Source: Lama glama
Taxonomy: Eukaryota
Assembly: GCA_028534125.1 (NCBI GenBank)
Contig: CM052816.1
Coordinates: 23,810,001-23,874,000 of the forward strand
Direction of reading: 5' to 3'
DNA: 64,000 bases
The notes beneath the pieces were generated by a model. It saw only the letters and a list, made by a program, of their open reading frames with translations. It searched no databases and was not told the DNA's origin. The position numbers were made by a program, and so were the translations under genes. Positions 11,564-37,349 of this stretch are shown here, piece after piece. How positions within the stretch are numbered: the stretch's first letter is position 1; every line of letters begins with the position of its first letter.

Positions 11564-11767
<204 letters not shown>

Positions 11768-14689: not shown

Positions 14690-14935
14690 CATACTAATAA
14701 AAGCTAATGTTTATGGAGCACTGAATACGTTCTCGACAATACTTAAACCAATTTACATTGGTTTTCTTATTAAATCACCATGCAGTGCTGTGAGGTTGGT
14801 TATTATCATTAACCCACTTTACAGATGAAGGGACTGAGGTGCAGAGAGGCTAAGTAACTTTCTTGAGGTTTAATGGGTAGGAAACTGTGGAGCCAGGCCT
14901 GCAACTTGCTAGATTCACTTCCGAGCTTTCAGTCT
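14690..14935 (-). mobile_element. MIR SINE
   Basis: Core cccactttacagatgaagggactgaggtgcagagaggctaagtaact. Confidence 0.85.
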
Positions 14936-16414
14936 CAGCCAGAGCTGTTGAACAAACAGCTGTGCGACCCAGGAGCACACACCCCAGCCCCCAGACTGCA
15001 TCTACAGGGGGAAAGTCATGGAGACGGCAGCAGCAACAGGAGAAACGTTCTCTCTTTGCTCATCACATCATGGGGTAGTGCCCTGCCGTCCAGCAAGGCC
15101 AGAATTAGATCTGTTTTAGTGATCCTTGCACTGGCTGTGGAGTTTGCGTACGCTGGAAAAAGCATTGTCTCTTTCCTCCGGTATGATAAAGGCTGAAAAA
15201 ATATGAAACCTTGACCTCCAGCCCAGTTTCTTCACTTCACCCTTCATGAACAGGGGAATCTCCCCTTTGTGTCATCAGGGTTCAGGGATCCCAGTTTTAT
15301 GATTATGGATACATGACCTGACATTCACTGGCTGCAGCCCAGATCCACCCCTGGGTACCCTACCTGGTTTGACCAATTTAAGCATTCAGATGTAGCCGGT
15401 TTCCATGGAGCCTTTGGGGAGGTTAGGCCAAAAGGACTAATTCTTGAAAAACCTAACCTTTCTTTCTAAAGTATGTTTTACTGCTCTCATTGCTGATGTA
15501 TTAGATATTCAGTCGGGGCAGGGGGTGTTGCTATGCTTTCTGTTTATTAAAGTGAAAATTTATTCTGCACCACTGTGCTAAAATAATCCATTCTCTGTGA
15601 GTTGAGAATTAAACTGCAGTTCAAGGAGAACACGAGTAGGGATTAGAGGAACTGAGCTAACTCTGTCTTTATTCATGGAGGGGAGTCAAAAGCAGAGGCC
15701 TAAAGGAATTAACTGTGAAAAAGGAAGAGATCGGCGTGGTCATTACAATGAAGCTGATTATAATTTGCCTTTGGCAAAAATACTTAAATATTATTTAAAA
15801 AGGTATATGTAGTAGTCACACTGTGAAGAAAGGCGTTCTTAAATCCTCTTTAAAAAGCTGGTAAAATCCTGGTTATCAACTGCAAATGACCTGCGTGGCC
15901 AAGTAAAATCAGAACTGATGTAAACGTCAGAACAGCCTGCTTCTCTGCAAATAGGTGGGTTAGGACTTTTAAAGTAGGAAACAGGTTAGTCTCTCTCTAC
16001 TTTATGGTGATTGTATTTGTTTATTTCAGGTTTTCCTCTCTCTGCACACTCATATACACACACCTGTATGCATGTATCTAGACCTGTGTCTAGTGCCCTT
16101 TCTCTCAGGTGCACAGAATTGTGTTGATCACAGTATTGCTTCATGGCATAATCGTATTATTCCATCTGCACTCCACTTTTTTGTTGTTCTTTGGTTTCCT
16201 ATCTTAGCTTATAATTTCAGGGGCTTCCACTTGGCCTTTCCCACTGAGAGCTCTTGCCCTACAGACCAAGCACTGTGTTAGTTAAGCCAGTAGGTATGTT
16301 CAGACTAATTATGCATTTGGGGTCTTGAGGGGACGATGCCACCTCTAGGTGTCAGTATCATCTCAGACTCTGTGTCCAGGACCTGTCAGTGTTTGGGTGC
16401 CATAGCCTGTATGT

Positions 16415-16485
16415 GTATGCACATCTTCTTTATGCATTCATCTGTTGATGGACACTTGGGTTGCTTCCGTATCTTGGCTACTGAA
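16415..16485 (-). mobile_element. Short L1 fragment
   Basis: acatcttctttatgcattcatctgttgatggacacttgggttgcttccgtatcttggctactg matches the antisense L1 ORF2 end. Confidence 0.75.
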
Positions 16486-17789
16486 GCATTATCTCCTCAT
16501 CTTAAGCACAGCATTGTCCTGGCGACAGCCTTTAGTGTTCAATCTCATTTTTAAGGCGTATTAGTAAGACAGTTGGAGCCTTTAACAACCTAATTCCTTG
16601 AGAATAGGGTTAATTCTGGGCAATGCCAGCACACTGGCAAAGATCACTGAAGTTCATCTTCCTAAGCTAACCCGATCTTAGTTCCCAGTCCCCATACCCT
16701 CCCAGTTCCCCATACCCTCTACCCTAAAAGCAAAGGTATGAATTTTTAACACAGGGATAATAGTGGAAACTTTTTTTAGTGGAGATACTAGCTTTGAGAA
16801 TCAAAGCCAGTCTTAACTTGCCATGGTTTCCTCTGTGTGCTAAGCAAATATGACATCCAGCAGGACTGCTGTGATTCCATCTCTCTCCTCTCTGTATATA
16901 TAAGATAGACAATGACCTATAATCAAGAAAATTGATAGTAAAAGATATTTGCACTAAGGACTCTGCTTTTCATGATGCATTTACATTGGGAGGCAGAGCA
17001 TTGAGTAGCTTAAAACTTCAGAGCATATGCATTAAGAGTTAAAATCTAAAATGGAAATCTGAAGCCTTAGTGCTTTGATAAACCATTTGCGAAGAGCATA
17101 CTGACCAGGTGCCAGGTTAGCATTGGGGTTTTGAGGTTTGACTTTTAGAAGCCCCCATCTGTCTCATGAATGGAAACGTCACATCCAAGAAAGTGAGACC
17201 AGTGGGGAAGGATGGTAAGAAGGCCAGATGGACAGCCAAACAGCAGCCTGGAGCTGACATTTGAGGCAAAATTAGCACATATCACTTCTCGGCATATTTA
17301 TCAGAAGTTGCCAATCTAAACTCTTTTAGTTTTTCCCCCACAACTTCCACCATTGAAACTCATGCATTAAGTAATTTGGGCACTACCCTGACAGTCTAGT
17401 CAACTCACGGCAATATTTCATAGGGAGTTACCGAAATGACATCACTCCCTTAATTTCAATCTAAACAAAATGGTTTACATGGAAAGTTGCACACAGCTTT
17501 CTATGAAAGCCTGGAGGAGAAAGAGTCCTTTATTTGAGGCACAGGGGGAAACGTCATCATTACGAACATGAAGTCTGTGAAAAATACATATTCCAAAAGA
17601 AAATCATATAACAAAATGTACTCTTTAGCATGTGATCTAAGTTTTGAGTCAAAATTAGGAATATTCAGATCACATTTTAACTTTCTTTTATAACAAATTT
17701 TTTAAAGTTTTTTATTAAAATAAAAAAGAGGAATAATGTAGAAATGAATGACAAGTTTAAGTTTAATTCAGAAAAGAAATGTGAAAAGA

Positions 17790-17985
17790 GAAGAGAGCAT
17801 GGTGGCCAGTAGAGGGGCCAAGATTTGAGGCCCAGACGTCAGGGTCCGTGCCCAGCTGCGGCATGTGGGAACTGTGTAATCTCGAGCAAATTTGGGTCTT
17901 CATCTTTACGATAGAGACAATGGTCTTTTCTGCATAAGGTTTTTATGAGTATTATATAAGATAAAGAAAGTGTTTGGCACTTTTT
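17790..17985 (+). mobile_element. MIR SINE (decayed)
   Basis: gcatggtggccagtaga...gaggcccagacgtcagggtccgtgcccagctgc...ctgtgtaatctcgagcaaat...cttcatctttac. Confidence 0.6.
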
Positions 17986-20242
17986 AGGTCTTTGTTAAAG
18001 AAGGCAGGGATATGTAGCGTAGAAAATTTAATTATAAAAGATTCAATAAACCATGTGGCTTGAGATCTTAAAAAATAATTGTAAAAGAATTCTAACATTT
18101 GGATTATGACTTGTAGTACAGTGTCCTGTAAATAATTTTAATCTTAAACAAAACAAAAATAGACCTACTAGAGCATATACTTGCCTGCTCTGATGAAAGT
18201 ATTAACAAACATTGAAATGGACTCAAATCCATCATCATGATGAACAAACATGGAACTAGAGATTTATCCATTAAATCCTGACTAGTCTCAGCCTGTTTTT
18301 ACTCCCCCAGCCCCAGTTTCATCCAAATTACAGAAATGGACATTTGAGACCCAGAGGACTTGATTTATTTAGCATAACACAGTGGTCAGGAAATTGCATT
18401 TTAGTGGCTTCAGGGAAATTTTCCCAAATGGTGGGAACCAGTGTTGCTTCCCCAGTGTCGTTGTATATTTAAATTCCTTTTAAAAATATGAAAAGTATAT
18501 GGTAAAGTAATTTGCATGATTCTTGCAGTTCAGTTTCTGCTGAAGATCACTGGAAAAATTGAGCCTCCGAGACACCTTTCTGAGAGACACAAAATTAGTT
18601 TTGTGTGTTAGTGATAGAAAAACTATTCTACCCTGGAATGAAAGGATTTGAACGTTTTGAACTTTGACATTAGAAAAAAAAAGTTATAAACTATAATCCC
18701 TTATTTCCTCATTTTACTTACTAAATCATTGCTGTTTCACAGTGGAAATGGAAAAGCAATAATGCAGACCAAAATAAAGAAAATGCTAGCTTTATAATGT
18801 TCTCGATCTTTAACCTCTGCTGAAAAGAGAGAGAGAGAAAGAAAAGCTACCTCACAAATTACCATGGCTCAGTGCCTGAAGGAAATTAGTCTGCTCTAAA
18901 GAAATATCCTGCTATAGCCAGGTAAAAATTAACAAAATTTGAAATATAATACCTTGATCGAGGACTGCGTGTCTAGCAAGTGTTGTCAGTTACCTACTGA
19001 CCGTGGATATACTTCATTCACTGCCTCAGCATGGAAAATGTATAAAGACTGGTGACAGTTTTTATGGGCTGCTAATTTATTTTCGACATTTCCAGTAAAT
19101 AAAGATATAAATAAACAAAGCTGTGATCATGCTTGAGCTGTTTATCTTAGTCCCGAGTTAAGAGTCTCTTCTTTTTCTTGGTGTAATTCTTTCACATTTC
19201 AGTGTAAAGTGTTTCTCATCTATACTCTGCCTTTGCTAGATTTGAGTACAGTTACTTACATTTAAGGATAACGTGAGTGATTTTGAAAATTTTAACTATA
19301 GTCACCTGCTATATTGGTCAAAGGGTCAAGTAAATTGTTCTTCCAAGTACCTGTTGCTTTACTTACTTCCAGAGGACTATTTTAAGCAGCCCTCATTTCA
19401 AAGAATCAGAACTTAAAATAAACAAATAAATTTAGTCATAGTATGAGCAAGTTTCTTTCAATGCCACCCTATGTATATTAGAGGAGTTGCTCTGTTTTGT
19501 GTGTAAGCTTTGGTTTTCCTGATGGGCTGTGGCTTCATACTTCACAGGTTAACATGTCTTTTCCAGTTTAACTATGAAAACTCTCTGAGGTATATTTTTA
19601 CCCCAGCCCAGTAGCAGCCACATAGGGCAAGTTTGTATGATGAAGCATGGCTGAATTCTGGTGAGTGGCAGAAGATGATTTGGGCAGTGTTTACCAGCAG
19701 CTGTATGCCATCATACTAAATTTAGTACGGCTTTATTTAACAAGCTATAGCTGATGCTAATCTGAAGCATAAACATATTTTTCAGCTATAGGTTTCAACT
19801 TCCAAATTCTTGGAACTGCTACCAGGAGTATGTGACTATTAATCAGAATTTCCCTCCTCCCATTTGTGATGGAATACCATAATAGTTCTATCACATAAAA
19901 GTAAACAGCTTTTCATTTTGTTCTCTGCATTAAGGATCACAGTGAAGACTTCTTATCCAGTAAAATCAGTATTATTTGCTAGTTAATAAAAAATGAAGAG
20001 AGGATTATAAAAGTCATATGTCCTTCATTAAAACTTTATGTTGACCTTCATTTTCCAATCTTCTGTTCCACAGAGTGGGGCTTCTTTTTGAGAGTGGTTT
20101 CCCAAATGACCTTATGAACGCTCTCATATTGTCGCATAAACCTCACCCAAATGCTTATGATTCCCAGTTTCATTTCTTTAGATTAATGCAACAGTCCTTC
20201 AAAACACTCCTGAGGCATTGTGAGTGCAGAATCCGTCTAGAT

Positions 20243-20448
20243 CAGCGGTCGACAGACTCTTTTTCTGTAAAGGGCGGATAATCAACATCTTTGGAGGTGG
20301 AAGTCCCTTTTTGTTGGAGACAGGCTGCTCTTCCGCCCTAGGGCAGGAGCAGCATGGACATTCAACACCCAAATGAACGAACGTGGCTGTGTTCTCATAA
20401 AATGCTACTTACAAAAGCAGGCAATAAGCTGCACTCGGCCAACCCCTG
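20243..20448. mobile_element. MER58A-like hAT-Charlie MITE
   Basis: Termini CAGCGGTCGAC... and ...GCCAACCCCTG; internal tttttctgtaaaggg and gtggctgtgttctcataaaa; imperfect 8-bp TSD gtctagat/ttctcgat matching the NTCTAGAN target. Confidence 0.8.
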
Positions 20449-20694
20449 TTCTCGATGATCACTATTATCACTATTCTTGCTCTATTTCAGATTGTCGACC
20501 CTCTACCTAATTCTGCAGCTGTTTTCTTAGTGACTGGCTAGATGATTTTAGGTGGGTGGGGTCATGGACAAATTTTATTTTAATAGTTATAATCTATTAA
20601 ACTGTCTCAAGGGAAGAAGCATAACTAGTACGTTAAAACTGTGTGTTTACAGATGTTATTTCTGAAAGTATTATTGATTAGAATAAAGTTCATA

Positions 20695-21010
20695 TAATTT
20701 TTTTGTAAAGACTTTTTAAGAGCAATTTTAAGCTCATAGCAAGATTGTGAAGAAGGTACACAGATTTCCCATATACTTCTTGACCCCACACGTGCACAGC
20801 CTCCCCTGTTATCAGTGTCCCCCACCAGAGTGGTACGTTTGTTACAACTGATGAACCTCGATCAATTCATCGTAATCACCCGAAGTCTGTAGTTTACCTA
20901 AGGGTTCACTCTAGTGTTGCACAGTTCATGGATGTGGACAAATGAAAATTGACATGTATCCATCAGTATAGTACCATACAGACTATTTTCAGTGCCCTAA
21001 AAATCCTCCC
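20695..21010 (-). mobile_element. L1 3' UTR fragment (L1MC-like)
   Basis: aaggtacacagatttcccatatac...cacagcctcccctgttatcag...ccaccagagtggtacgtttgttacaactgatgaacc. Confidence 0.85.
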
Positions 21011-22309
21011 ATTCAAATTTTTAAAGTGAGTATGCACATAGAAATATCCTAAGTGGAAAGCAGTGTAGGGGATTCAAGGATACAGCCATTGGTATAGAGA
21101 TGTGATTCATGAATGACTAGAATTTGAGAAGTGACATAGTAAGATTTATTATCATTGTTAACATTGATGGTTGCTATCATTAGAAAGCGTTTTACCTTCT
21201 AGAAATGTTTTGCAAACTAGAACTCAGAGTCACCATTATGTTTGCCAGAGACTTCCAAACGGAAAGGAATGCCCTGCTAATGAGATCATAATAAATTGAG
21301 CTCTGTTATCTTTCTTTCCAGGTCTGCCTTTCTTATCTCCAGTTATCACCTCCTCTTCTTTCCACCCTTCCCTGTAGTACTGCTCTTTTTCTGCTCTTCT
21401 CTACTGTTACCTAGACTGTAATCAGAAACCTGGCCATTCCTGAAATTTAGAAGGAAAATTTTTCAGTATCATTCACGTCATTCCAGGTTTTTCCACTCTT
21501 AAGCATCTGCCTATGTCTAGCCTATGAATCAATGCAGCACTCAGAAAGAAGGGACGTATTATGCCATTACAGTCAATATTTTATGTTTAAAATGTAATTT
21601 TTCAAACAAAAATATAAGTAGACTTTTTCTAAAACTACAGCTACATGCTTATACATAAGTACGTTCTGTTTTAACATGAAGGCATTTAAGAAGGTGCTTT
21701 CAGTCATACTGGGAAAATTATCAGAGGTTGCTCTCTTGTTTTATTGGGTTCTAAGCACCACAGATTTGAAGCCCTTGAAGATATTTTGTAATAGAAAACA
21801 TCTGAAGCTTGCTAAAAAAATTCTCATTCAGTAAAACCATGTTGTGAATATTTAGTTGTAGGCTTAGAAAATTAACAAACTCATAGAATACAGCTCTTCA
21901 CAAATTAGATTATCGTAATTTTCCTCCCACATGGACTATTTTTCCTTAATTTACCATGATAAAAAATATTTGTAATAATTAAGAAAAACAGGAAGTATAG
22001 CATTCTGGCATTTACTTGAAACTTCATTTTACATTTAAAAATATTTCTTGTATGTTTATTTTCCCTGTAGCTTTAAGATGGAAGAATGTTTATTTTTTTC
22101 CCACAAAGTATAATGTTGCATTTCATTTAAATCCTGAACACTACTGTGGACACCCTATTTGTAGTGACTAGTTCATTATTAGTATTTCTGTCTAGAATCA
22201 AGAAAGTATGTGGATCTCATGAATAAAATATGTTCTAGAATAAGCTCCTCTTTAAGAAGGTAGTTAAAATTTCACTGTGTTTTTCTCTTAGGAGTATTGC
22301 TATGTTATG

Positions 22310-22858
22310 TGTAACTACTGTCTTTACCATTTGCACAACTTGTGAGCAGTAGGAGTGAGGTGAGGGAGAAAAGGAAGGGGAGGATTGTTCCGCCGTCAAT
22401 GCTCCATCCCTCACCTCCAGGCTATGTGAAAGAGAGATTCCTTAAAGAGGCTGAAAAGAACAGTAATGAGGATCTTCTCTGGAAAGTGTTCCATGAGCTA
22501 GAGTGTGGGAGGAGGAACATAAGAAATGGAGCCCAATTTACATCTGCTTTCCAGGTTTAAAAGGCAAATGATACTGAGTTTCCCATCTCCCAGGTGAGGC
22601 TCCCACAGAAAGGAGACGGACTGAGTAGTCCTGAAAAGGGCACTTGGCACATAGCTTCCTGTATGGTGGGTGACCCCAGCTTGGGGATAAACTGTCAGAA
22701 ACAGAAACGTGGGGCTGATGAGAGGTTACAAGTGGTCAGATAGAGGAAGGGCCCCTGGGATCAATGGTGAGAAACGTGAGAGACTTCCACACTTTCCAAA
22801 AATATCAGTAAAAGTATTAAGCTTTGGAGCCACCATGCCCAGAAGGCACTGATGCCAG
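22310..22858 (+). mobile_element. Possible ancient Gypsy-type LTR (MamGypLTR-like), left part; right part about 26130-26533
   Basis: Starts TGTAAC; purine-rich body. The distal piece ends aataaaattgctttctgcttgcaccc...cccattact. Assignment from recalled consensus only. Confidence 0.35.
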
Positions 22859-23852
22859 AATCATTCAGTTAGAAAAAATATTTGAGTTCCTAACGCACTT
22901 CTAGACCCTGGGGATAGAGTAGTGAACAAAAAGTTACAAATCCTTTCCTTCATGCAGTGTACATTATAAAAACCAGGGACAAACAATAAACACACACACT
23001 GTGTGTGTCAGGTGTGAGAAGGCCATCAGAAAGTCAAAGCAGGGTGAGAATGAGGCTATGAAGGAGGTGAGGGGAAACCTCTGCTGTCTGCAGGGGGTGA
23101 GGAGGGGGCAGATTCCTGACAGGGACCAGCAGGTGCAGAGGCTCTGAAGCAAGGGTGTACCTGAGGGAGGAAGGATGTTAAAAAGCCCAGTGTGACTGGA
23201 GCCGAGTGGTAAGGAGGACACTAATAGGTGACAGATTTAGAGATGCAGTCTGAGGCCATGATGTGGGGCTTTGCAGGCTGGGATAAGTACTTTGGACTTT
23301 AGTTTGAGTTCTCAAAATGGGAGCTTTTGGAGGAGTGAAATATTCTGACCTCCAGTTTAAAAGATTTGCTCCGGCTGCTGGGTGGTAAAAAGATGATAAG
23401 GGAACAAATGTGAAAGCATCAAGACCAACTGAAAAATCTACTGCAATAATCTGAGACTTGATAGCTTGGATGAGGAGTTTACTGGTAAACGTGATGAGAA
23501 GTGGTTGAATTCTGGACGTATTTTGAATGTTGAACCAACAGAATTTGTTGACAATCACTTGTGAGGTAGGAGAAGAAAAGAATCGAGTAGTTCTAAGGGT
23601 TTGGGAATGGAGAGGAGGAGGCTGCTGTTAACGGAGATGGAGAACATCTATGGGTAGACTGTAGCTGGGGGAGGGAGGTAGTCCGAGCTCAGCCTTAGAC
23701 GATTAATTTGAGGCACCTGAGAGACATTCAGGAAGCCATTTATAGTTCCTCATGTGGGTTATATTCCAGGGCAATGTCGAGGCTGACAATACAAATTTGG
23801 GAGTCTTCAGCTTATAGCTAATATTTATAGCCATTAGTATAGATGAGATCAT

Positions 23853-24141
23853 TGTCAGCTGCGGGAGGCTGGAGAGGGATCCGAGGAGGTGAGCTGCCCA
23901 ACTGGAAGAAGGCGTGGGGAGCTGACAGAGAGCAAAGTAGCACTTTATTGCACTACAAGCCGGTGGCACGCGCCCTCAGGTGTAGCACTTGTCCTTTTAT
24001 TATGCCTGCGCATGCGTATTGTTCATAATGCTTACTCATGCTACTAGCGCTTGCGTACATTTACTTCTTACCTCATACACATGCAAGTTATTGTGAACTT
24101 TGACCTGGGTCCCGTGGCCTACTCACTTAAGACTGCCGACA
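23853..24141 (-). repeat. 3' LTR of the provirus (289 bp)
   Basis: Minus strand TGTCGGCAG...GCTGACA, with AATAAA at 23944-23949 and a purine-rich tract immediately upstream. Confidence 0.93.
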
Positions 24142-24152
24142 TTCTACCCACT
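24142..24152 (-). promoter_or_regulatory. Polypurine tract
   Basis: AGTGGGTAGAA immediately precedes the TGT start of the 3' LTR. Confidence 0.7.
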
Positions 24153-24240
24153 AGGTCGTGGGGACCCTGGCCCACAGAGTGGGGCCCTGTGCCCAAAGAC
24201 CACCACCACAACATAGTGAACAGCATCCTATCACTAAACA
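24151..24240 (-). pseudogene. Probable env C-terminal tail remnant
   Basis: Minus frame CLVIGCCSLCCGGGLWAQGPTLWARVPTT*, Cys-rich and ending just before the purine tract. Assigned by position and recalled resemblance to ERV-S env tails. Confidence 0.5.
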
Positions 24241-24902
24241 GGCAGCCATAATGTGAGGCTGCAGTGTACAGCCCAACTGTCCGTGCAAATCTGCAAGGGG
24301 CTGGGTTCATGCATTAACACCATCCATACCGCCTGTAACTCAGCCCATTGGCTGGAATGGCCTTCTCCTGTCTCATACCAGAAGGCTTCGGTGGCAGGGT
24401 GCAGTGCCACTGCAACCCAAGTGGGCAGACTGCCCTTGCAGTAACCATCCATATACCGAGCATCTCCCAGGAGTGGTCCCTTTCCCTTGTGAAGGGCACT
24501 GGGTGTGGAATCCACTCCCTGATGCGGGAGTGTCTGCAAAGCAGGCGCAACAAGTTTCACAGGCTCTAACACCTGCTGCAGCTCTGCAGCCAAGGGGCTG
24601 GTGGCGTATCGGGCCCGTTGTTCTAAGTAAGTACCCCACTTAGTCAGGGTTGGGGTCTGCACAGACCCCGATCAGGGTTGCTTTGCCCACATATGTATCC
24701 ATCCTGCAATGGGGTATATGGTCTGTACCTGTACTTCTTGGTTCCCTGTCAGGGGCTCAGTGGCTATCAAAGATGCACACATTGCTGACAACTGTTTCTC
24801 AATTAAAGAGTAACGATATTCAGCCCCTTTCCATAGCTGGGACCAGAACCCTATGAGCACCTGCCGTTGCCCATGCTCTTGCTGTAATCCCCGACCATAT
24901 CC
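24237..24902 (-). pseudogene. ERV pol fragment: RT connection domain plus most of RNase H
   Basis: One reading frame with a single stop (24672-24674): GYGRGLQQ...IGFWSQLWKGAEYRYSLIEKQL...KWGTYLEQRA...YMDG...SSQWAELQAV...ICTDSWAV. Three RNase H acidic motifs (DG, AEL, TDS) are visible. Confidence 0.92.
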
Positions 24903-25632
24903 CATACAGTGCATGCAGCAGCCATCAACCAGTTTATCAATGTATGGTTGCCAGCATTAGCATTAGGCTAGGGAATGTTTTGCAGCCATTGCCGCAATGA
25001 AGGGACGGTTGTTATACTGGCCAGCTAGCCCATCTCCTTTGGAGATAGCTCAGTCTGGTCGCCCCATCATCCCAAAGGCGTAAAAGCCATGCGGGGACTG
25101 ACTCACCCGTACGCTGTTTATACTGCTTTGCCAGGTCCCGCAATTCCATCGACGTATAAAACGTGTAGGTGGTTTGTCGAGTCGCTAGCCGTGGTCCCAC
25201 AGGAGCTCCCCCAGGGCCATGAGTTCCTCCAGTTCCACCTGCTGCTGCACCCCTGGTCGTAGACGCAGCGGAATTGGGGGTGGGAGGGGTGGCTGGGCTT
25301 ACCGTTCTTGAAGAAGTGGTGGAACTGGAGCCATGCAGGTGTCTTGCTGCCATACCAAGTCTCTGCTCGAGTTCCTCTTCCTTGCGCTGTAACTTCTCCA
25401 CTTGTGTCTGTAATTCTCTATTTTCTCGGCTCGCATGGCGTAAGACCGATAAACACATCCAGGCTGCCCTCCTGGCCACCTCCCAGTGGGCCTGTGCGAC
25501 ACTGTTTTCCAACAACTCCACAGCCTTCCAGACGTCATCTGGCTGGGGCGCCTCTGTGTCCCAGTTTTAGGTTGGGGCCCATGCCAGCAAGTAAGCCGTG
25601 ACCCAGTACCATAAGGAGGTAGGGGGCCACAT
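24903..25632 (-). pseudogene. Disrupted ERV gag 5' part
   Basis: ATG at 25632: MWPPTSLWYWVTAYLLAWAPT*NWDTEAP...ELQTQVEKLQRKEEELEQRL...TTYTFYTSMELRDLAKQYKQRTGESVPAWLLRLWDDGA, then a frameshift near 25060 to DQTELSPKEMG*LASITTVPSLRQWLQ...HTLINWLMAAACTVW. The QxxGExxxxWLLRLWDxG motif is typical of class III gag. Confidence 0.85.
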
Positions 25633-25688
25633 TGTTTCCATCCGAGCTTCCCCGTCAGAGGAAGGGAGAACAGGGGGGCACTCACCTC

Positions 25689-25710
25689 ATCCTGCCTGCT
25701 GACTGCGCCA
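25689..25710 (-). promoter_or_regulatory. Primer-binding site complementary to the tRNA-Ser 3' end
   Basis: Plus strand reads ATCCTG-CCTG-CTGACTGCGCCA. Removing the duplicated CCTG gives 16/18 identity to the recalled tRNA-Ser 3' end ATCCTGCCGACTACGCCA. Confidence 0.85.
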
Positions 25711-25712
25711 AG

Positions 25713-26002
25713 TATCAGCCGCGGGAGGCTGGAGAGGGGTCCCAGGAGGTGAGCTGCCCAACTAGAAGAAGGTGTGAGGAGCCGACATAGAGCAAAAGCG
25801 CACTTTACTGCAGTACAAGTGGGTGGCGCGTGCCCTCAGGTGTACGCAGTTGTCCTTGTATTATGCCTGCGCATGCGTATTGTTCATAATGCGGATGCAT
25901 GCTGCTAGCGCATGCGTACATTTACTTCTTACCTCATATACATGCAAATTATTGTGAACTTTGACCTGGGTCCCATGGCCTACTCACTTAAGACTGCCGA
26001 CA
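25713..26002 (-). repeat. 5' LTR of the provirus (290 bp)
   Basis: Minus strand starts TGTCGGCAG and ends ...GCTGATA (CA mutated to TA); PBS follows after 2 nt. About 90% identical to the other LTR by hand count (about 29 substitutions plus 1 indel). Confidence 0.93.
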
Positions 26003-28479
26003 ATCATGAAGGGAGCATTTTGACAGAGATGAAGTCTAAGGTCTGAACCCTAGAACACTTCAACCCTCAGAGGTCCAGGAGATGAGCAGGACCCAGCAGA
26101 GGAGGCTGAGAAGGAGGTCTGTGAGATCACATCTCCACCAATCGAGTAAAATCTTTACCAGTGCCGGTCCTTTCTCTTCCCCATTGCAGCCTTGAAAGTA
26201 CCTATAATAGCCGCTGGCTAGGCAGGAAGGCATAGAAAAATAGAAGGAAAAAAGATAACCATGTCCCCTCCACTACTGAAGGCTTCTAAGTCTGAACAGG
26301 CTCAAACCAGGAAGGCGGAGAAACTTAACTGGATGAGAGATTAGAACTATGTGGTTGTTGGGTTTCAGTGGACGTTATGTTCATATGAAAGGCAAGGGAA
26401 AACCTTAAGGGAGCTGACTGAGATTTCCTAGGTCAGGAAAGAACTGGTCAAAAGGAAATTTGCAGAATGACAGTGGGAGAAATAATAAAATTGCTTTCTG
26501 CTTGCACCCTTGTGGTTTCTAATACCCATTACTATATATTCGCTCAGTTTCTATGAAAACATTTCCAACTTCTTGACTTACAGTTCTAGTCTTCCAGCAA
26601 AAGTTATAACTTTTGCTTAAATCACCAGACAGATGCTGTGAGTAATTTAAAGAAAAAGAGATTCCAAAGGTGATGGTCTTTCACAGTGTCACTGAGGACC
26701 CCTGAGGTGCTTTATGTCCTTGAGAGGTGTCCAGATTACTTCGTATGGATAAGCAGCAACTCTGTCCTGTAAAGCAGTCATGCAAGTATGTCCTGTGAAT
26801 GTGTCTGTGCTCCATCAGCCCGGTTGGAGTGTGACTCCAGGGAAGTCCAGTCAGTCTTGGTGAGTCCTCTCAGTCAGCTGTTTTGAATTGGCCACTTTGC
26901 ATAAAGGATGCTAGCAGATGAGTTTTTGAACTTACGCAACTCCATCACCCCCTTGAACAGATAAAAGTGTGTGCTTTACAGACTGAAGGAGCCTTAGGAG
27001 TGAACCCTCCATACTCACACCTATACAACTCATTCTGTGCATATACACAGATGTGTCTGTGCAATTCATTGTATGTACATATTGAATTTAAACTGGATAT
27101 ATATAAATGTCAGGTAAACAAGGAAATCAACAAACTCAAGACCATACAACTATAACAATTTAAAGATCAACTTTCTTAGAAGAATTGCTTATAGTATGTG
27201 TTTTAGTAACTCAGTATACCATTTTTGTTGAGTTTAATTCCTTTTATGATAATAAGTATGAAAAGCACAGGGACTAATATTTATATGATAATTCTATAAT
27301 AGAATGTAGGACACCTTTTCACTTAATGCCATTTATTTAGAAAATACAAATTAAATGCCTTGATGCATCATTAAAGTATTGATGAAAGATCAAGATTTCT
27401 TAAATGAAGGTTCCTATTGCATTATGCCAAAATACATTTAAAAATCCTGAGGGTTTTATGATTACACTTAATGTACTAATGTTTAAAAAGGAAAATAGGG
27501 ATAGAAAATATTAAATGCTTGCATGTCTGCCAAGTGCAAATGGTTATAGTAAATTTAACTCTGGAATTTCCTGACTTTTGTGTTGTTAAAATTATAGGTT
27601 TTACTCAACATTGAAAGAGCCTTTCCATTTAATTTCTCTATATTAAAATTTTTAAGATAATTGTAGAGGGTAGAGAGAATTGGAAAGAAGATTCTAGGAG
27701 ACATAAATAGCTCATCACACAATTTCGTTAAAAGTATTCCTTTACAGAAGCTCAACATCATTGTTTTAAATCTTCAGTATTTTATAACTTGTAAATAATT
27801 TGGTTTTATTTGTCTTGGACTAACAAAAGGTAACAAAATGTTTCTGCCATGAGTAAAGAAAAAAGAAAGAGAAAGAAAGGAAAGGAAAAATTCCTGCTGG
27901 TGGATAGCTACTCTTCTCCAGAAGTATCATTTGGGGATGCAGACCAAAAATTTAAACTCATATCATTTGACCATGTTATCAGTAACTTTGATGTATTTTG
28001 AGATAGAAATAGTTTCCCTATTGTTGTCTTAATGTTAAAAAGCACTGTGATGGAATTGCCTCTTGCCACCATTACTTCATGCCTGAGTTACTCCAAATGA
28101 GTGTTTAGAAAGATGCAGTATTGATTTCCGGCAAAAGAAGTAACCATTTATTAATTGCTAGAATAGTAACCTTTTAAAAAATGCTATTATTCTGCCTAAG
28201 TGGACAGAAATCTCTTAATTAAAAGAGTTCCTTTAGTGCCTGTTAATGTTAACATATAGAGACTATTTTAAATGTGCTTCAATAACAAGAAGAAAAAGGG
28301 ACCAAGGCGTATATATAATATAATCATATATAATCATACTACATGTGTATGTAATTATAATATAGTAAGACTCTGAAATAACACTAAAATATTGATACTG
28401 CGTAATAGATAATAGGCTTCCATCCTCTGTACAATGGATGTACAGTGGATCCTGGTGTTTTCCATGATCATACAAAATA

Positions 28480-29550
28480 TCCTTCCCTTACCATCTATCC
28501 CTTGAGCCAGTGCATCTCTCTTCCTTTCTGTCACCTCATACTTTGTAATTGTCTACAGTCATTCCCCACTTTTATTTCTCTGACTTACTCTAGAACCCAT
28601 TGTAGCCTAGGGAATGGCCTCACCAGTCAGGTGAAATTAATTTCAACAAGATCACTAGGGGACTTTTCCCATTCTTTATTTTACTTGACATTGCTGCAAA
28701 ACAAACAAACAAAAAATTACCTATCTGCAGTTGGCTCCCCAGAGTGGAACACAGACCTCTCCTGAGCCGCTTGCCCTTGTGTGCCCCTGCTTACCAGGCA
28801 GGCATGTTTCAGATGTCCCCCCGTTTTCTCAGCAGCATGCGCAGACCGAGTCTTTTGCTTCTCTACACCCAGTCCACATGTGCCTTACCAGCATTTCTCA
28901 AGAACATCATCTCCGTGATTGGTCCGATCATGCATTTTCGAGCTCAAGACGTGAATCTGGGTAGCACTCTTAATACCTTCCTTTCCTGACACACCATTTT
29001 TTCAGCAAGAACTTGGATAGATTCTGCATCCTAAATGTATTCTGAATCTATCCACTGCTCTCTGCCTTTATCGCCACAGTCTCTTTTCTGGATTACTGAG
29101 ACAGCTTCCTGTGATGTCTCCCTGTCTCCCGCTTGTTCTACTGAAATCTTTTTTCCACGTTGCAGCCACAGTGATCTTTCTAGAACACAGATTTGGTCAT
29201 GTCACTCCTGAGTCCCCCATTCTTGGGGTAAAGCATGCCATCCTCTCTTTACATCTCTAGCTTCGTTTCTTTCTACCCTCTCTGTGATTCAGACACACTG
29301 ATATTTACTTGTTCCTCAAATAAATCGCATTCTTTGTTGTCTTGTCATTTTGTGTGTGCTCTTCCCTCTGCTTGGATAACAATATGCCATTTCATTTTCA
29401 TAGCCGGTTTTAGACCTGTTTGTCTGTTGTGTTTCAGCTTAACTGTCACCTTCCTGTGGAAGTCTCTTTTGGCCCGCTCCTCTTCTGCATTCCCTTGTCA
29501 CCTGGCACCACCCCTGCTTTAGTGTTTACTACACCATATTGTCATCGGGT
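28480..29550 (+). mobile_element. L2 fragment(s)
   Basis: tgaatctatccactgctctct...ccacgttgcagccacagtgatctttctagaacacagatttggtcatgtcactcct. Confidence 0.75.
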
Positions 29551-29769
29551 GTAATTTAGATCTCCTGGCCATCACAGCTGGCTTCTGGGGAAGGAGTCCA
29601 GCAAACCCCTGGTTTCAGCTGTACTCACTGCTTAGCAATTCTATTTCTGATCCAAGGAAGTGTTCATCTTGTATTTTGAAGCCAGCTGGGTCTTTTTGTT
29701 TTCTCTTTTTGTACGTTATCTGTCGCTGTTCCATGTTTGCAGCAGAAAGGAGGTAACAAAGCATCCTGA

Positions 29770-29845
29770 CTAGACACCAGAATCTGCACATTTAACAAGC
29801 TGTCCGGGGTGATCCTTATGCGCATTAAAGTTTTGTAACACCTGC
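29770..29845. mobile_element. MER5A-like hAT fragment
   Basis: gaatctgcacatttaacaagc...gtgatccttatgcgcattaaagtttt...acacctg. Confidence 0.7.
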
Positions 29846-30341
29846 ACTCTAAGTTACTCTATCGAGGAGACTGACGCTATTTGACATGAACTTACTCAAC
29901 CTCAGATTCCCTCTGATTCCCTCTGTTACTACGTCTTCAGTTTCCATTTCTCCTGCCTTTGATGAAGTGTCTTCTCATCTTTCCAGAGTGACTGTTCCAG
30001 CTCTGGGCTTAGTTCTGTCACCTTTCTAGACTCCTGCTAACTCTCGCTAATAATTAGTTTATTTTCTAGCCTGTATCTCTTTTCTTTCCTGAATCTTCCT
30101 CTTCACCGACAGTCAAGGCATTAACACAGACCCTCTCTCCACCAGCTCTTTACTCACCTCTCACTATTCTATTTCTTTCTTCACTGATGTTTTCTAAAAG
30201 CTCAGCTTGTACCAGCAGTCTTAAATTCCTCAGCACGTATTTATTTCTTAACCTTTTATAAAACTGCCTCTTTCTTCCTGAATCCCTTATAGCATTTGCT
30301 GTTCTTGATTACTTTGTTTCTTCTCGAGTATAGTTTCTTGG

Positions 30342-30821
30342 TGTGTTAGTTTTCTCTTGCTGCTATAACATATTACGATCAACTTAGTGGCTTAAAGCAA
30401 CACAGATTTATTACCTTATACCCCAGGAGATCAAAGGTTTAACATGGGTCTCATTGGGCTGGAATCAAGGTGTTGATAGGACTGAATTCCTTATTGAGTG
30501 TCTGGGGGAGAATCCATTTTCTTGACTTCTACAGTTTCTAGAAGCTGGCCGCATACCTCGGCTTGTGGCCCTCTGTCATGTTCAAATCTCACGGGGTGGC
30601 TTCTTCACATCTCTGCATCTGACACCTCTGCCTCCCTCTTCCATTTATACGGATCCTTGATTACAGTGGACCTAGGACCAGACAATCCAGGATAATTACC
30701 CCATTTCAAGATCAACCGATTAAAAATCTGAATTCCCTTTTGTCATATAAACTAACATATTCACAGGTGCCCAGGATTAGGACTCTGATATCATTGATGG
30801 GCCACGAGTCTACCTCCCACA
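30342..30821 (-). mobile_element. MLT1-family MaLR solo LTR
   Basis: tgtgttagttttctcttgctgctataacatattacg...aacttagtggcttaaagcaacacagatttatt...ctcccaca; TG...CA ends with near-TSD cttgg/cttga. Confidence 0.88.
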
Positions 30822-31884
30822 CTTGACTTCTTTAAAATGTACGTAGCCTTTCAGGAATTCTGGTGATCTCTCTTTCCTTTTTCTTTATCCTCACTTGCTT
30901 TTCTTGTTTCAAGTGAATATGCCTCCTTTGTAACTATCTTTAACATCTTTCCTGCTGTTCTGTTCTCTTCACTTTATATTCTCTATCTTACTGATTTTAG
31001 TCACATTGATGGTTTCAACTCTCTTATCCACAGATGCCAAATTCTAAGGATTTACCCTGGATTTTCAGCTGTTTTCTAGACATTATTAGCTGGAAATGTT
31101 AATAATGAAGCCATCCACTTTCCCCAAAGTTTTTCTTTCCTCACTAATTGTATCATTAATATTAGCTCATTTATGAAGCCTTACTGTCCCTTACTGTCCT
31201 CATTCTTGGTTTTGACTTTCAGGATAGATATTCCCTTTATTTATTCTTTGCTCTCTTGGCCCCACCCTCATTAATTGGAACTTAGACCCTGCCTTGTCCC
31301 TGAGCCCATTCTTACCCCAGCACTGTTCTTTGTCAGCTTCTGGCACGTACCATTACCAGAAGTGATGTTCCTCTTTCTCCTGCTGAGTGATTTGGTTGCT
31401 CTTCACTGATGCAAAGCAAGGGCAGAGAAGGGTGTTCTAACTTTCTAGTTATATCTTCTACTCCCCTATAAAAACCCTCAATTCATGGGAAATAGTTCAT
31501 TCCTCATCCACTAACTGACCACTTCCAAATAATTGGCTCATAGTTTTCCCCATCTTCTCTGCATGTTGAAGTCCTGCCCCAATTTTATCAACTACTGTGT
31601 CCTCCAGGAACTTCCTGTTTCACATAATTCAACTGGTAACATATTAAACTTCTTTGGTGGGATCTATCATATTGTGCCTTGTTTTAAATTTATCTCTGTA
31701 ATATATTACAAGCTCATGATGGTTAGAGATTATGTACAGCCGATACATGGTATGTGAAAAATCAAAGGCCTTTAATCAGTAATTACTTAATGAGTTCATG
31801 AATGAACAGTAGATGCCCAATTAAATATGTTTATTTAACTTAAGGAAAATTGAGACTTGTAAAGAATGAGTAGCATTTTCTTTA

Positions 31885-33795
31885 ATATCTCTTATGAAAA
31901 TAGACGCAAATTTCCTCAAGAATGTACCAGCACACTAAATCGAGCCACACAGAAAAATGATTACACATCATTATCAATTGGGATTTATCCCAAGGATGCA
32001 ACTTCGTTCAGCATCTGAAAATCAAGTAATGTATCATATAACTAGAATAAAAGACAAATGCCGTATGATCATCTGAACATGTACAGAAAAAGTATTTGAA
32101 AAAATCTGACACCCTTTCATGATAAAAATGATCAACAAACTAGGAATAGAAGAGGACATCATCAGCCTGATAAAGGGCATATATAAAAACTACAGTTAGC
32201 ATCATACTTACTGGCAAAAGAAACAACACTTCCTCTAAGATCAGGAATAAAACAGATGTTCACTCTCACAACTTCTATTAGACATCGTTCTGGAGATTCT
32301 AGCTGGGGCAGTTAGGAAAGAAAAGGAAATGAAAAGTATCCAGGTTGGAAAGGAAGAAAATAAAATATCTATTTGCAGAGGACATGCCTCTAGTGGAAAA
32401 GGGGTCAGCTAAGATGAGTCAGGTAGCCACTAAAGTGGGGAGAATATCCTCTAAACAGCTACTTAGACCCAAGAAATGGTTCAGCAAGGTTACTGTGATA
32501 CAGTATCAACATATAAGAATGAGTCATATTTCTATAGACTAGCAGTGAACACTCTGAAAATGAAACTAAGAAAAGAATTTCATTCACAGGAGGACCAAAA
32601 GAATAAGTGCTTAGGAATAAATGTAACAAAAGGAAGTGAAAGACTTGTACACTTAAAACCACAAAACCTTGTTGGAAGAAATTGAAGATCTATGTAAATG
32701 GGACGATATCCTATGTTTGTAGATTAGAAAACTTAATGCTAATATGGCAGTATTTCTCAAATTGATTTATAGACTGCAACACAATCCCTCTCAAAATCCC
32801 AAATGCCTTTTTTTTTTGCAGAAATTGAGAGTCTGATCCTAACATTCATATGGAAATTTGTATGCAAATCATGTGTCAGATATGGGACATATATACAGAG
32901 CTCTTACAACTTAATTATAAAAAGACAGATAACTTAATTAAAAACTAGGCAAAGTAATTGAATAGATATTTCTCCAAAGAAGATAAAAAGAAGCAGTAAG
33001 CAAATGAAAATGTGCTCAAAATCATTAGTCATTAGAAAAATTCAAACCAAAAATACAGTGTGATACCACTTCACATCATTATAATAAAAAAGGTAATAAT
33101 GAGTGTTGGCAAGGATGTGGAGAAATCGGAGTCCTCATCCACTGCTAGTGGGAATGTAAAACATTACAGCTGCTTTGGAAAACAATTTGGCAGTTCCTTA
33201 ATAAGCTAAACGTAGAGTTATCATATGATGCAGTGATTTTACTTCTAGGTGTATATATCCAGGTGAAATGAAAACATAGGTTCACAGAGAAATAGTGCTC
33301 AGGTGTTCATAGCGGCTTTACTCATAATAGCCAAAAAAGGAAACTAATTTGAATATCCATCAACTGATGAATGAATAAATAAAATGTATATCCATACAGT
33401 AGAGTATTATGCAACAGTAAAAGTCAATGAAGTACTGATATATGTCACAACATAGTTGAACTTTGAAAAAATGGTGCTAAGTAGAAGAAACCAGTCACCA
33501 AAGACCATATATTTTATGGTTCCTTTATATGAAATGTTTAGTACAGGCAAATCTATAGAAACAGATTAGTTGTTATTAGTTAAGGGGTAACTATTGCATA
33601 GGGCCTGGGGGGAGGCAGGCAAGGGGACTGCTAATGGGGTGGGATTACTTTGGCTAGAATGAAAGAGCTCCAAAATTAGGTTGTAGCCATTCTTGTACAA
33701 CCCTGTAAATACCAAAACCTGTTGAGTTCTGAACTTGAAGTGGGTGAGTTGTATTATCATGCAATTATTATATTTCAGTAAAGCTGTTTATAAAT
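31885..33795 (+). mobile_element. L1 (L1MB-like) ORF2 3' part plus 3' UTR, decayed
   Basis: gggatttatcccaaggatgcaa, gcagaaattg...aacattcatatggaa, gttggcaaggatgtggagaaatcgga, atttcagtaaagctgtt terminus. Confidence 0.92.
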
Positions 33796-34096
33796 ATACA
33801 ATGAAATTCTGAGAACAGTTGATGTACACCATGCTTTCAAAATCTGAAAAAGGAAAAGCAGGTACTAATTTCCCATTACAACTTTTATCCCTCTTAAACT
33901 TGAAAATAGGTAGTGATTTATTGTATTTAAAATTTAGCTATACATTTTCCTGATTTCAAATAGTATAGTAATTAATAAAAATTCACAGAAAAAATATTTA
34001 CTTCTTTTCTATACAAAAAACATTTTACAGAATAGGCCAAATACATTTGGTTCCTTGGCTTTGATGGAAAGAAGATGTTCTATTAGCACTTTTTTT

Positions 34097-34121
34097 ATTG
34101 AAGTATAGTTGATTTACAATG
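34097..34121 (-). mobile_element. 25-nt L1 3' stub flanked by an 18-bp TSD
   Basis: attgaagtatagttgatttacaatg lies between tctattagcacttttttt (34079-34096) and tctatgagtacttttttt (34122-34139); the right copy is followed by aaaa. Confidence 0.7.
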
Positions 34122-34479
34122 TCTATGAGTACTTTTTTTAAAACAAAATTTCTTGTTTTACTTGCTCTAAGTTCTCTGGGGCATAATTGTTACATTTATG
34201 TATGACGTGTACATATTGGAATTGACAGAATCTCTAGAGCGATGTTCTTAGAATTCAGTGATATCTGAGATCACACTTAGCGCTACTTATCAAATTATTC
34301 TTTATATTCTTATTAGAGTAATATTTACAGTAAATGTTGTAAATGTTGGTTGACAAATATGAGGTTATGTGGTTTGGCAGTCAGAAATCTGTCAGCTGGT
34401 TTTGCTTAGATCTAGTTTTCTTTTTTGAAAAACCTGTGTTCGGCCTCTTCAAATTACCAAATGCTTTCCAGCCCTTCTC

Positions 34480-35230
34480 TTTCTTTACCCTTGCATGGCA
34501 CGCTGAAGACCCCCCTTCTTTTTGACACCGTGCTGCCTGGTCCTTCCTTCCCAGACTCCTGTACTGGCTTCTCTTCCTTTGCTTTCCCTTAGATGGTAGT
34601 GGTTCTCACAGTTCCTCCCTTAAGCTCAGTTCTTTTCATTGGTGTGTCTTCTTTGGAAATGGCCTCTATTGCTACAACTTCAAAAGCAATCTACAGAGTT
34701 GGTGATAAGCCACAAACTTACATCTTTACCCCTGACTTCTTGACTGAGTTTCAAATTATTAGTTGGAATCTCTGCCTGTTTCTCTCAAACATTTCATAGT
34801 CAAAATGTCCCAAATTCATCTTAAAATCAAGGTAAGTTATTCCCTCTGTGTCCTGTTTTCTGTTAATAGCACTCCTATTAACTGCCTTGTCAGTCAAGCT
34901 AGAAGTCCAAGACAAAGTCCTGCCGAGTGCTCCTAGAATCTCTTGACTATCTCTTCCTCATCGTGCAGCTTACTTCAGGCTCTCATCACTTATCACCGGA
35001 CTGTTTATTTATCTACATTAAGCACAAGGATTGTCTTTCTGAAATATTAACTTGCTTATGTAATGTTCTTGTTTAATTTAAACCTCTTCATAGACACCGT
35101 AAATCACTTCAGAAAAAAAGCCAAAGCTCTTGGGAAGGTTCTCCAGGACTCAGCATGTGGCTAACTAGCTAAGCTTATCTCTGTCAACCATTCTGGTACA
35201 CTTTTTGTTCCTCAGCTGTGCTGTATTTTC
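34480..35230 (+). mobile_element. L2 fragment
   Basis: cctgacttcttgactgagtttcaaa...catagtcaaaatgtcccaaa...gtcaagctagaa. Confidence 0.65.
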
Positions 35231-35329
35231 AGATGTATTCACCTATGCTGTTTTTTGCTTTCATTTGTTTATTTTTTAAATTAATCTAAGGCTGACTGTA
35301 TTCTGCTTACTTTAGTAATTAATTCAGAA

Positions 35330-35765
35330 CCCCAGGCTTCCGTCAGTCAGCATCCTGTCCTGTCTAGAGGAACCATTCAAAAGTCAGCGTGTGACTCAAT
35401 TTAAGACATTAGGAGAAAAGCGAAGACTTGGTAGGTGCTCCTGGGGACAAGTTCTCTTTCTCTTAGGAGACAGCCCCTGGAAGAAACACCCTGTCTTCCT
35501 CCCGATGTCCCAGTCAAAGGGCCAGCCTAGGGCTGCTACAGCCATTTTGCTTCCATCAGGGAAGGTAGCCTTAAGAATGAAGTCAAAGCAGAGAGGAAGG
35601 CGTAGCTGAGCATATTTCAGAGAAACTGAGCAAGCGACATTGCCTTGAAACAATCCTAAATTCCTTGACACTTCTGGACTGCCAGATATGCAAGTTATTC
35701 AATTTCTGCTTTATGCCAGCTGGGATCAGTTTTTCTATGGCAGACCAAAGCCTCCAAACTGATCA
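35330..35765 (+). mobile_element. Old MLT1 (J/K-like) MaLR LTR
   Basis: gcctagggctgctacagccattttgcttccatcaggga...cttctggactgccagatatgcaagttatt...ccaaagcctccaaactgatca. Confidence 0.65.
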
Positions 35766-37306: not shown

Positions 37307-37349
37307 ATATATATGTATGTGTGTATGTATATATATATATATATATATA
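37307..37349. repeat. (TA)n/(TG) microsatellite
   Basis: atatatatgtatgtgtgtatgtatatatatatatatatatata. Confidence 0.9.

Follow-up and report, generated by a model that had tools for sequence, protein, structure and literature searches.

A doubly deleted, long-dead serine-tRNA-primed class III (HERV-S-like) endogenous retrovirus copy within a fibrillin-2 intron of Lama glama

We know of no living ERV-S virus. The closest described systems, compared here and below through the accessible parts of the publications cited, are endogenous retroviruses (ERVs). HERV-S/HERV18 (HERVL18, LTR18A-C) has class III gag-pol, a Ser-type primer-binding site (PBS) and short LTRs, like the element described here (PMC4724089, PMC5753468), with 5' LTRs of about 300-360 bp in five of the six HERVS rows among those listed in PMC4724089. 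The likeness takes in the absence of dUTPase in our element's relatives and about 60% identity by eye in stretches of Gag and Pol, and may extend to env, expected to be of class I type; HERV-S differs in host lineage and family and in its length of 6-7 kb, against 2.15 kb, a 290-bp LTR and two internal deletions in our element. ERV-S.1-Dbi of the black rhinoceros (bioRxiv 10.1101/2024.03.17.585361) is likewise laurasiatherian and intronic, with a Ser PBS, a 5-nt target-site duplication (TSD) and env; compared by description only, it differs as a recent insertion that is still intact, whose two LTRs of 792 bp are identical and whose PBS is of the Ser(CGA) type. XtERV-S of Xenopus has TGT...ACA ends and a 5-bp TSD, a class III feature, a Ser(AGA/TGA) PBS, all as in our element, and a short Env tail, as our element probably has, and 19 deleted copies retain LTRs, PBS, leader, 5' gag and polypurine tract (PPT), which is our element's build; its host is an amphibian and its LTRs measure 705 bp (PMC8278194). 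Horse EqERV-S1 to S3, Ser-PBS proviruses named by their PBS (PMC5682256), and HERV-S-related ERVs of bats (PMC12402889) are further laurasiatherian proviruses, both compared by description only. The original prediction for our locus had presented the ERV-S group as much less studied than ERV-L and MaLR, which overstates its rarity: as these sources describe, non-primate ERV-S from horse, rhinoceros, bats and frogs, and deleted copies, are already published.

The window analysed is a 64,000-nt stretch of Lama glama DNA (GCA_028534125.1, contig CM052816.1, positions 23,810,001 to 23,874,000). Its relevant features are as follows, with the basis of each call in brackets.

11709..38363, plus strand: intron of the host gene, 26.7 kb long, flanked by cbEGF exons of 126 nt each (exon analysis)
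23848..23852: downstream TSD copy, ATCAT on the plus strand (sequence)
23853..24141, minus strand: 3' LTR, 289 bp, TGT...ACA (LTR pair alignment)
24142..24152, minus strand: PPT, 9/11 purines (sequence)
24151..24254, minus strand: probable env C-terminus, with the end of a membrane span, a Cys-rich stretch and a short tail (inferred by eye)
24240..24903, minus strand: what remains of pol, covering the RT connection/tether and the first half of RNase H (Pfam, tree)
24241..24254, minus strand: junction 2, where a deletion joins RNase H to the env tail with up to ~14 nt of overlap (overlap length inferred from contig ends)
24900..24903, minus strand: junction 1, where a deletion joins gag to the RT connection with 4 nt of overlap (contigs, alignment)
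24900..25641, minus strand: 5' part of gag, from the N-terminus up to where capsid begins (sequence and likeness to HERVS Gag)
25680..25688, minus strand: leader splice-donor-like GAG|GTGAGT, a donor candidate only (sequence)
25689..25710, minus strand: tRNA-Ser PBS with a 4-nt duplication inside (tRNA comparison)
25713..26002, minus strand: 5' LTR, 290 bp, TGT...ATA (LTR pair alignment)
26003..26007: upstream TSD copy, ATCAT on the plus strand (sequence)

We read this element, with a probability of roughly 0.85, as what is left, fixed and non-coding, of an ERV-S-lineage class III retrovirus that carried env, was primed by tRNA-Ser and would have reached the germline in an ancestor of camelids some tens of millions of years back. 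The observed base of this explanation comprises integrase-type ends, the 5-bp TSD, the LTR pair, the Ser PBS, gag and pol of ERV-S type, a family of multiple copies and presence in five related organisms. Two short-overlap deletions, one of late gag, pro and RT and one of late RNase H, integrase and most of env, would have left the cis elements in place, having arisen by polymerase template switching in reverse transcription or by later microhomology repair in the chromosome. The copy would never have been amplified as a mini-element of its own, and would have decayed neutrally since insertion.

All parts named in the original prediction are present where it had placed them (two LTRs of ~290 bp, an exact ATCAT TSD, a donor-like leader motif on the minus strand, the 5' part of gag, RT connection/RNase H and a purine tract), while the probable env remnant had been overlooked. 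From the window composition, a 5-mer TSD match has a chance of ~0.0013, and the TGT...ACA ends are those of class III ERVs, the 5' LTR having one altered terminal base. The LTRs are identical at 260 of 289 aligned columns, with 17 transitions (8 at CpG), 12 transversions and 1 gap. In the 5' LTR, the TATA-like and poly(A)-like hexamers are both decayed, and U3 carries two ACGCATGCGC boxes (25917 and 25878); the 3' LTR has a TATA-like motif at 24000, AATAAA at 23949 and boxes at 24056 (one mismatch) and 24017.

The K2P divergence of the LTR pair (0.108) is 3.7 times the divergence of the orthologous copy in a relative. In 16 of the 24 runs listed, under five organism labels, 0.86-0.96 of a 6-kb stretch is present, 36% of which is the element, and the insertion is common to five related organisms; no empty site turned up. 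CpG observed/expected (o/e) is 0.44 in the element, against 0.25 in the rest of the window, and 0.63-0.67 in the LTRs. Consistently with the prediction of abundant CpGs and relative youth, the element is CpG-rich and younger than the L2-like repeat that it interrupts; nevertheless, the LTR divergence and the sharing among five organisms reject a young insertion, and the solo LTR found at 4084-4563 matches the element in CpG richness (o/e 0.45). The 12 transversions are many for 9 non-CpG transitions, partly owing to two clustered patches (LTR columns 106-110 and 204-206); with the variable number of U3 repeats among family LTRs and the gene conversion reported as common in camelid LTR elements (accessible text of PMC8605555), this could mean that the LTRs stem from different subfamilies, by recombination or gene conversion, and that the insertion is younger than 10% LTR divergence suggests. 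We consider this rather unlikely, since the TSD is exact, both LTRs carry private changes, and gag and pol are heavily decayed too. Moreover, at 2 of 8 LTR sites checked both LTRs have the same letter against most other copies, as expected of one template. At these 8 sites most other copies side with the 5' LTR at 3, with the 3' LTR at 2 and with neither at 3, in line with neutral decay.

The PBS starts at 25710, 2 nt past the 5' LTR, and another family copy has an uninterrupted Ser-type PBS in the contigs. The Ser type predicted for the element's PBS held in a comparison drawn from loci found with a PBS-derived pattern: 11 of 24 loci were animal-type tRNA-Ser (AGA/TGA/CGA), complementary at their 3' ends over 14-15 of 16 nt, 10 were bacterial tRNA-Arg (15 of 16 nt), and the other 3 were left without a tRNA call. 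In a published human PBS table, among the rows starting with TGGCG, only an S row opens like the element's PBS. IMG/VR gave neither relatives nor a tRNA match, and searches of the window with Rfam and ARAGORN were negative.

The gag remnant has in-frame stops, a frameshift near 25060 and a cut at ~24900; it had no significant Pfam match and, as a weak negative, no relative among long proteins. In pol, 221 codons remain in a single frame with one stop; Pfam matched two pieces to RT_RNaseH_2/RT_RNaseH (E 4e-6 and 8e-6) and RNase_H (E 7e-5), RT_RNaseH alone clearing its curated cut-off, and a PDB search with the Pol piece gave no match. The env-like tail (34 codons), whose stop immediately precedes the PPT, is probably an env C-terminal remnant, judging from its sequence; it had no Pfam match and by eye resembles the HERVL32 Env end among published texts that do not include the HERVS end.

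In a Pol tree whose sampling, like that of a second tree, leaves out HERV-S itself and class I/II proteins, the element joins two Camelus proteins within a mammal and galliform clade separate from the mouse dUTPase-bearing ERV-L-type Pol; tree support is 100/98 for the Camelus grouping, alongside a value of 100/100. Pol identity is 72% over 221 aa to the best Camelus (C. dromedarius) protein, 54% to mole, 50% to bat, 45-48% to galliforms and 33% to the mouse Pol; a Xenopus tropicalis Pol, not tied to XtERV-S, is 37% identical. All near relatives found are of ERV-L/ERV-S type. By eye against the visible parts of the published consensus text, a 33-residue stretch of Gag has 20 residues identical to HERVS and 15 identical to HERVL, more motifs of HERVS type lie on both sides of it, and 28 of 47 Pol residues match HERVS; on this comparison, Gag and Pol appear closer to HERV-S than to HERV-L. 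The likeness to HERVS, the Ser PBS and the camelid nearest relatives (72-82%, against 45-54% for bat, mole and birds) support the predicted class III, ERV-S-like and lineage-restricted placement, and because those nearest named relatives are camelid, we do not file the element as HERV-S itself.

Membership of ERV-L proper, or of side branches like HERVL32/HERVL66, is distinctly improbable. The dUTPase position falls in the region deleted here, the env tail is most like HERVL32 among the texts compared (the HERVS end excluded), and 2 of 87 HERVL chains have a Ser PBS (PMC4724089, accessible part), but HERVS is the best fit for both Gag and Pol, and no protein of the element's clade has a dUTPase, including camelid, mole and galliform relatives, among which the galliform Pol alone is plainly of full length. 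The Ser PBS, the placement of the mouse Pol (33% identity) outside the element's clade, and the probable env remnant likewise speak against HERV-L/MuERV-L. Foamy virus identity was rejected; with the element's own RT core deleted, a mole proxy matched gammaretroviral (E 2e-36) and foamy (E 1e-33) RTs in PDB about equally.

The ERV-S-lineage copy belongs to a family for which each genome shows 30-40 LTR-flank junctions or more, the LTR 3' end meeting unrelated flanks in 36 (run X1) and 33 (run X5) contigs, and for which there are ~5-12 contigs per internal site; contig depth was not taken as copy number, and runs X18 and X20 (small share) and X21-X24 (share 0.00) were left aside. C. dromedarius LOC116156322 and Cadr_000022945 and V. 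pacos XP_072822481 and LOC116285423 belong to this family too, with identities of 72% (221 aa), 78% (73 aa) and 82% (28 aa). Annotated merely as uncharacterised or RNase H-like, these predicted proteins come from other loci and, unlike the element, keep RT and integrase; Cadr_000022945 also has the Gag N-terminus in common with it. No description of a camelid ERV-S was found in the literature searched, which lay outside Dfam/Repbase; PMC8605555 and PMC6675863, in their accessible parts, give only ERVL totals. The predicted poor coverage by repeat libraries would be a possibility only; Repbase includes alpaca LTR entries, e.g. LTR2_Vpa. The copy itself seems ordinary, but seems to mark a camelid retrovirus family little described in that literature. 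Somewhat short of even odds is a bolder version, in which the family would be undescribed, camelid-specific and env-bearing, with unusually short LTRs, NRF1-like U3 repeats that vary, insertions numbering in the tens in each genome, long Pol frames in members and copies transcribed in reproductive-tract tissue, absent from curated libraries and the third mammalian ERV-S invasion beside those of primates and perissodactyls. Such a family would be of modest use to paleovirologists, shared insertions are markers for camelid phylogeny, and independent mammalian ERV-S invasions (primates, horse, rhinoceros, bats and now probably camelids) help date the circulation of env-bearing class III viruses.

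Junction 1 lacks ~2.07 kb, measured on an avian-type relative (L001) from a metagenome scan (5 avian-type loci from 99 pattern matches, no env or PBS detected) used solely to size deletions; junction 2 removes the remaining RNase H, integrase and most of env. The retained LTRs, PBS, leader, 5' gag and PPT, the structural likeness of 11 of 19 deleted XtERV-S copies (PMC8278194, accessible part) and the env-tail/PPT stretch shared by 8-12 contigs of other copies would also suit a non-autonomous mini-ERV subfamily mobilised in trans by full-length ERV-S helpers. This is improbable: in X1 and X5, other copies cease aligning at 24900/24903 from both sides, so deletion 1 looks private to this locus among the contigs listed. 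At 24893, contigs with another letter end within 10 nt (5 of 5 in X1, 4 of 4 in X5), the remaining depth being that of one locus, and no deletion junction shared by several loci appeared among the contigs listed for these runs, which speaks against an amplified mini-element, a reading we rejected. In the RNA run X17, the sole junction-spanning contigs among those listed differ by 2-3%, as the flanks do, and are therefore read as the orthologue. One 562-nt contig passes 24241 into non-matching sequence; private status is less certain for junction 2 than for junction 1, among contigs that cannot prove absence.

The host gene, which from exon peptides we take to be fibrillin-2 (FBN2), has its exons on the plus strand, so the element is antisense in its intron, as predicted. 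It lies ~12 kb from either flanking exon, within a repeat presumably of L2 type; separate BLAST searches of the two flanks gave only weak matches, to different old repeats. Being antisense and mid-intron, its donor and poly(A) signals point away from FBN2 transcription, a position through which it would have survived, and the FBN2 strand inside it has a single poly(A)-type hexamer. The element is dead, carried along antisense in mid-intron as a passenger, and the locus is a neutral fossil. The CpG-rich LTRs, the enrichment of NRF1-like boxes (9 strand-matches in the window, 7 of them in the LTRs, against 0.37 expected) and fixation in five organisms could instead point to co-option of an LTR as promoter or enhancer, yielding antisense RNA or tuning FBN2, which we hold to be highly improbable, as the family as a whole has the boxes, the core signals of the 5' LTR have decayed, and the divergence of the orthologue is no lower inside the element (2.9%) than in its flanks (2.1%). 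Such CpG-rich LTRs may be mis-annotated as regulatory sequence in camel and alpaca genomes. In X17, whose contigs give neither level nor strand, orthologous contigs have a depth of 6-8, near the intron background of 1-5, which also argues against co-option.

The LTR pair of about 290 bp and the exact ATCAT target-site duplication of the original prediction are both present where it had placed them.

23853-26002, minus strand: the element, bounded by two ATCAT copies

The LTRs measure 290 and 289 bp, start with TGT and end in ATA/ACA, and are identical in 260 of 289 columns (K2P 0.108, or 0.079 minus CpG sites); no further copy of the element was found within the 64-kb window. Two bases past the 5' LTR comes the predicted Ser-type primer binding site (PBS), to which an interrupting 4-nt duplication has to be added, followed by the expected donor-like GAG|GTGAGT. 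CpG remains abundant, as claimed, with an observed/expected ratio of 0.44 vs 0.25 in the remaining window. The fibrillin-type exons of the window are on the + strand, and the antisense intronic placement holds, at ~12 kb from either neighbouring exon; the gene name FBN2 is our assumption from the exon peptides. We take the repeat surrounding the element to be L2, for which a script test gave weak matches only.

Both coding pieces previously reported, a gag 5' part and an RT-connection/RNase H stretch, could be read. Gag, which starts at 25641/25632, is broken by in-frame stops and, near 25060, by a frameshift; the deletion cuts it off early in capsid. In pol, a single 221-codon frame with one stop spans the RT connection and RNase H as far as its first half. 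A 34-codon frame follows before the purine tract (PPT). It contains a hydrophobic, Cys-rich stretch, stops just ahead of the PPT, had no Pfam match and by eye resembles the end of HERVL32 Env in the available portion of the supplement of PMC4724089. This frame, absent from the original prediction, is a putative env remnant. A 21-bp tandem in two copies occupies 24158-24199 of the env tail, immediately before the PPT.

Related proteins align to the pol piece from 24902 to 24240-24243 and not beyond, which fixes both junctions (gag to RT connection, and RNase H to env tail). Measured on L001, a relative of avian type, the gag match stops at 1119 and the pol match begins at 3186, so that ~2.07 kb was lost at junction 1, and another 1.3 kb of pol lies past the position matching junction 2. 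L001 and L002 are contigs of 5.7 kb that carry an ERV-S-like gag-pol of avian type and have terminal overlaps of 99 bp; both come from metagenome-derived records and are likely host DNA. Among contigs of sequencing runs X1 and X5, those with another letter at position 24893 end within 10 nt (5/5 and 4/4, respectively), gag-side contigs of other copies stop at 24899-24900, and the depth left over at junction 1 corresponds to one locus. These observations speak for the first deletion, at least, being private to the element's locus, within the limit that contigs cannot prove absence. At junction 2, env-side contigs stop at 24254 and one pol-side contig at 24241. From these end positions the overlaps are 4 nt (junction 1) and up to ~14 nt (junction 2). 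Short overlaps of such length are typical for template switching or microhomology repair, and either process may have produced both deletions.

On testable features the element belongs in the ERV-S lineage; it works like HERV-S and is not HERV-S itself. The consulted parts of PMC5753468 and PMC4724089 describe this lineage as dUTPase-less class III with a class I env. Consistently with the predicted ERV-S-like class III assignment, Gag and Pol were closer to HERVS in identities counted by eye against the HERVS/HERVL text seen in supplement 3 of PMC4724089: the pre-capsid Gag stretch shares 20/33 residues with HERVS vs 15/33 with HERVL, N-terminal and capsid motifs are in common with HERVS Gag, and Pol matches HERVS at 28/47. 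Over 221 aa, the Pol piece shares 72% identity with a Camelus dromedarius Pol, and less with mole (54%), bat (50%), galliform (45–48%) and mouse dUTPase-bearing (33%) Pol; all named matches above 70% were from Camelus or Vicugna, which makes a camelid host probable. In a 26-row Pol tree (28 candidates, of which 25 were kept and three dropped because they aligned over a short stretch or not at all), the element groups with two camel proteins (support 100/98) inside a clade of six rows, mammalian or unnamed in origin (97/93), whose sister group is four galliform rows (100/100), with all six dUTPase-bearing rows outside the element's clade. An RT tree built for the camel relative, with 24 rows after removal of one candidate that was too short, left the grouping unchanged with weaker support (94/95 and 90/90), both trees being without HERV-S and class I/II references. 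The mole relative, standing in for the element, reached similar scores with RT structures of gammaretroviral and of foamy type, whose chain identities are partly our assumption.

The PBS-derived pattern search recovered 24 loci: 11 were animal-type tRNA-Ser (14–15/16 nt), 10 bacterial tRNA-Arg (15/16 nt), to which a mammalian virus has no access, and three uncalled. One other family copy has a Ser-type PBS without interruption. The animal-type tRNA-Ser genes (AGA/TGA/CGA, no encoded CCA; L006, L010, L011, L016, L018-L022, L024 and L026) lie in prokaryotic MAG contigs, as probable eukaryotic contamination.

Sixteen of 24 listed runs (five organism labels, seven studies) contain 0.86–0.96 of a 6-kb stretch, 36% of which is the element, so the insertion is common to several organisms; the top-scoring run is perhaps the window's own source. 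In contigs aligned at 80% identity (X1, n = 871; X5, n = 803), the LTR 3' end runs into unrelated flanks in at least 36 (X1) and 33 (X5) contigs and the 5' end in at least 22+8 (X1) and 12+19+9 (X5), which implies a family of at least a few dozen insertions. Internal sites have ~5–13 other-letter contigs each among those listed, and most insertions would be solo LTRs.

In X17, a reproductive-system RNA run, contigs across both junctions were 2–3% diverged and flank contigs 2.1%; we take both sets to represent the orthologous locus of a related organism. The two LTRs have diverged 3.7 times as far as this orthologue, and generic, assumed rates of 1.0–2.2 per billion sites per year give an age of 18–54 million years. 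Scaling would give at least 40 million years if the X17 host lay across the Old/New World camelid split (11–25 Mya in the part seen of PMC4884201). At eight LTR sites, most other copies match the 5' LTR at three, the 3' LTR at two and neither at three, and at two of these last three both LTRs carry the same letter, as expected from one template; this pattern favours real decay over a recombinant LTR pair.

Nothing points to the element being in use. Orthologue divergence is no slower inside (2.9%) than in the flanks (2.1%), the 5' LTR has decayed core signals, and within the element a single poly(A)-type hexamer faces FBN2. Antisense bias of intronic ERVs is a known survival pattern according to the portion seen of PMC1794541. 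At 24789-25060, X17 family contigs (depth 65–180, vs 6–8 for the orthologue) cover gag and pol and end at the gag/pol junction, which hints at transcription of other copies with smaller deletions; such contigs show neither strand nor level and may include DNA. Each U3 (25917-25869 and 24056-24008) has two ACGCATGCGC-type boxes, presumably NRF1-like, in a stretch that other family LTRs duplicate in tandem by 33–39 nt; the window holds nine strand-matches vs 0.37 expected.

The element is a real, ordinary locus that the original prediction described well. ERV-S is on record from primates and, in the parts consulted, from horse (PMC5682256), bats (PMC12402889), black rhinoceros (bioRxiv 10.1101/2024.03.17.585361) and frogs (PMC8278194), the last with 19 deleted copies built like the element. 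No camelid ERV-S was found in the literature searched, which did not include one camelid TE paper's supplement; the portions seen of two camelid TE papers (PMC8605555, PMC6675863) give ERVL totals only. Repbase contains LTR entries for alpaca, and the family behind the element may be undescribed.

By eye, no lineage-specific SINE was evident in the parts read of positions 1-49899. The repeats there, which we take to be old L1, L2, MIR, MLT and DNA-transposon types, fit a camelid genome poor in SINEs. A solo-LTR-like element, presumably of class I type, lies at 4084-4563 on the minus strand (TGT...ACA, 4-bp flanks AGTA/ATTA, CpG observed/expected 0.45).
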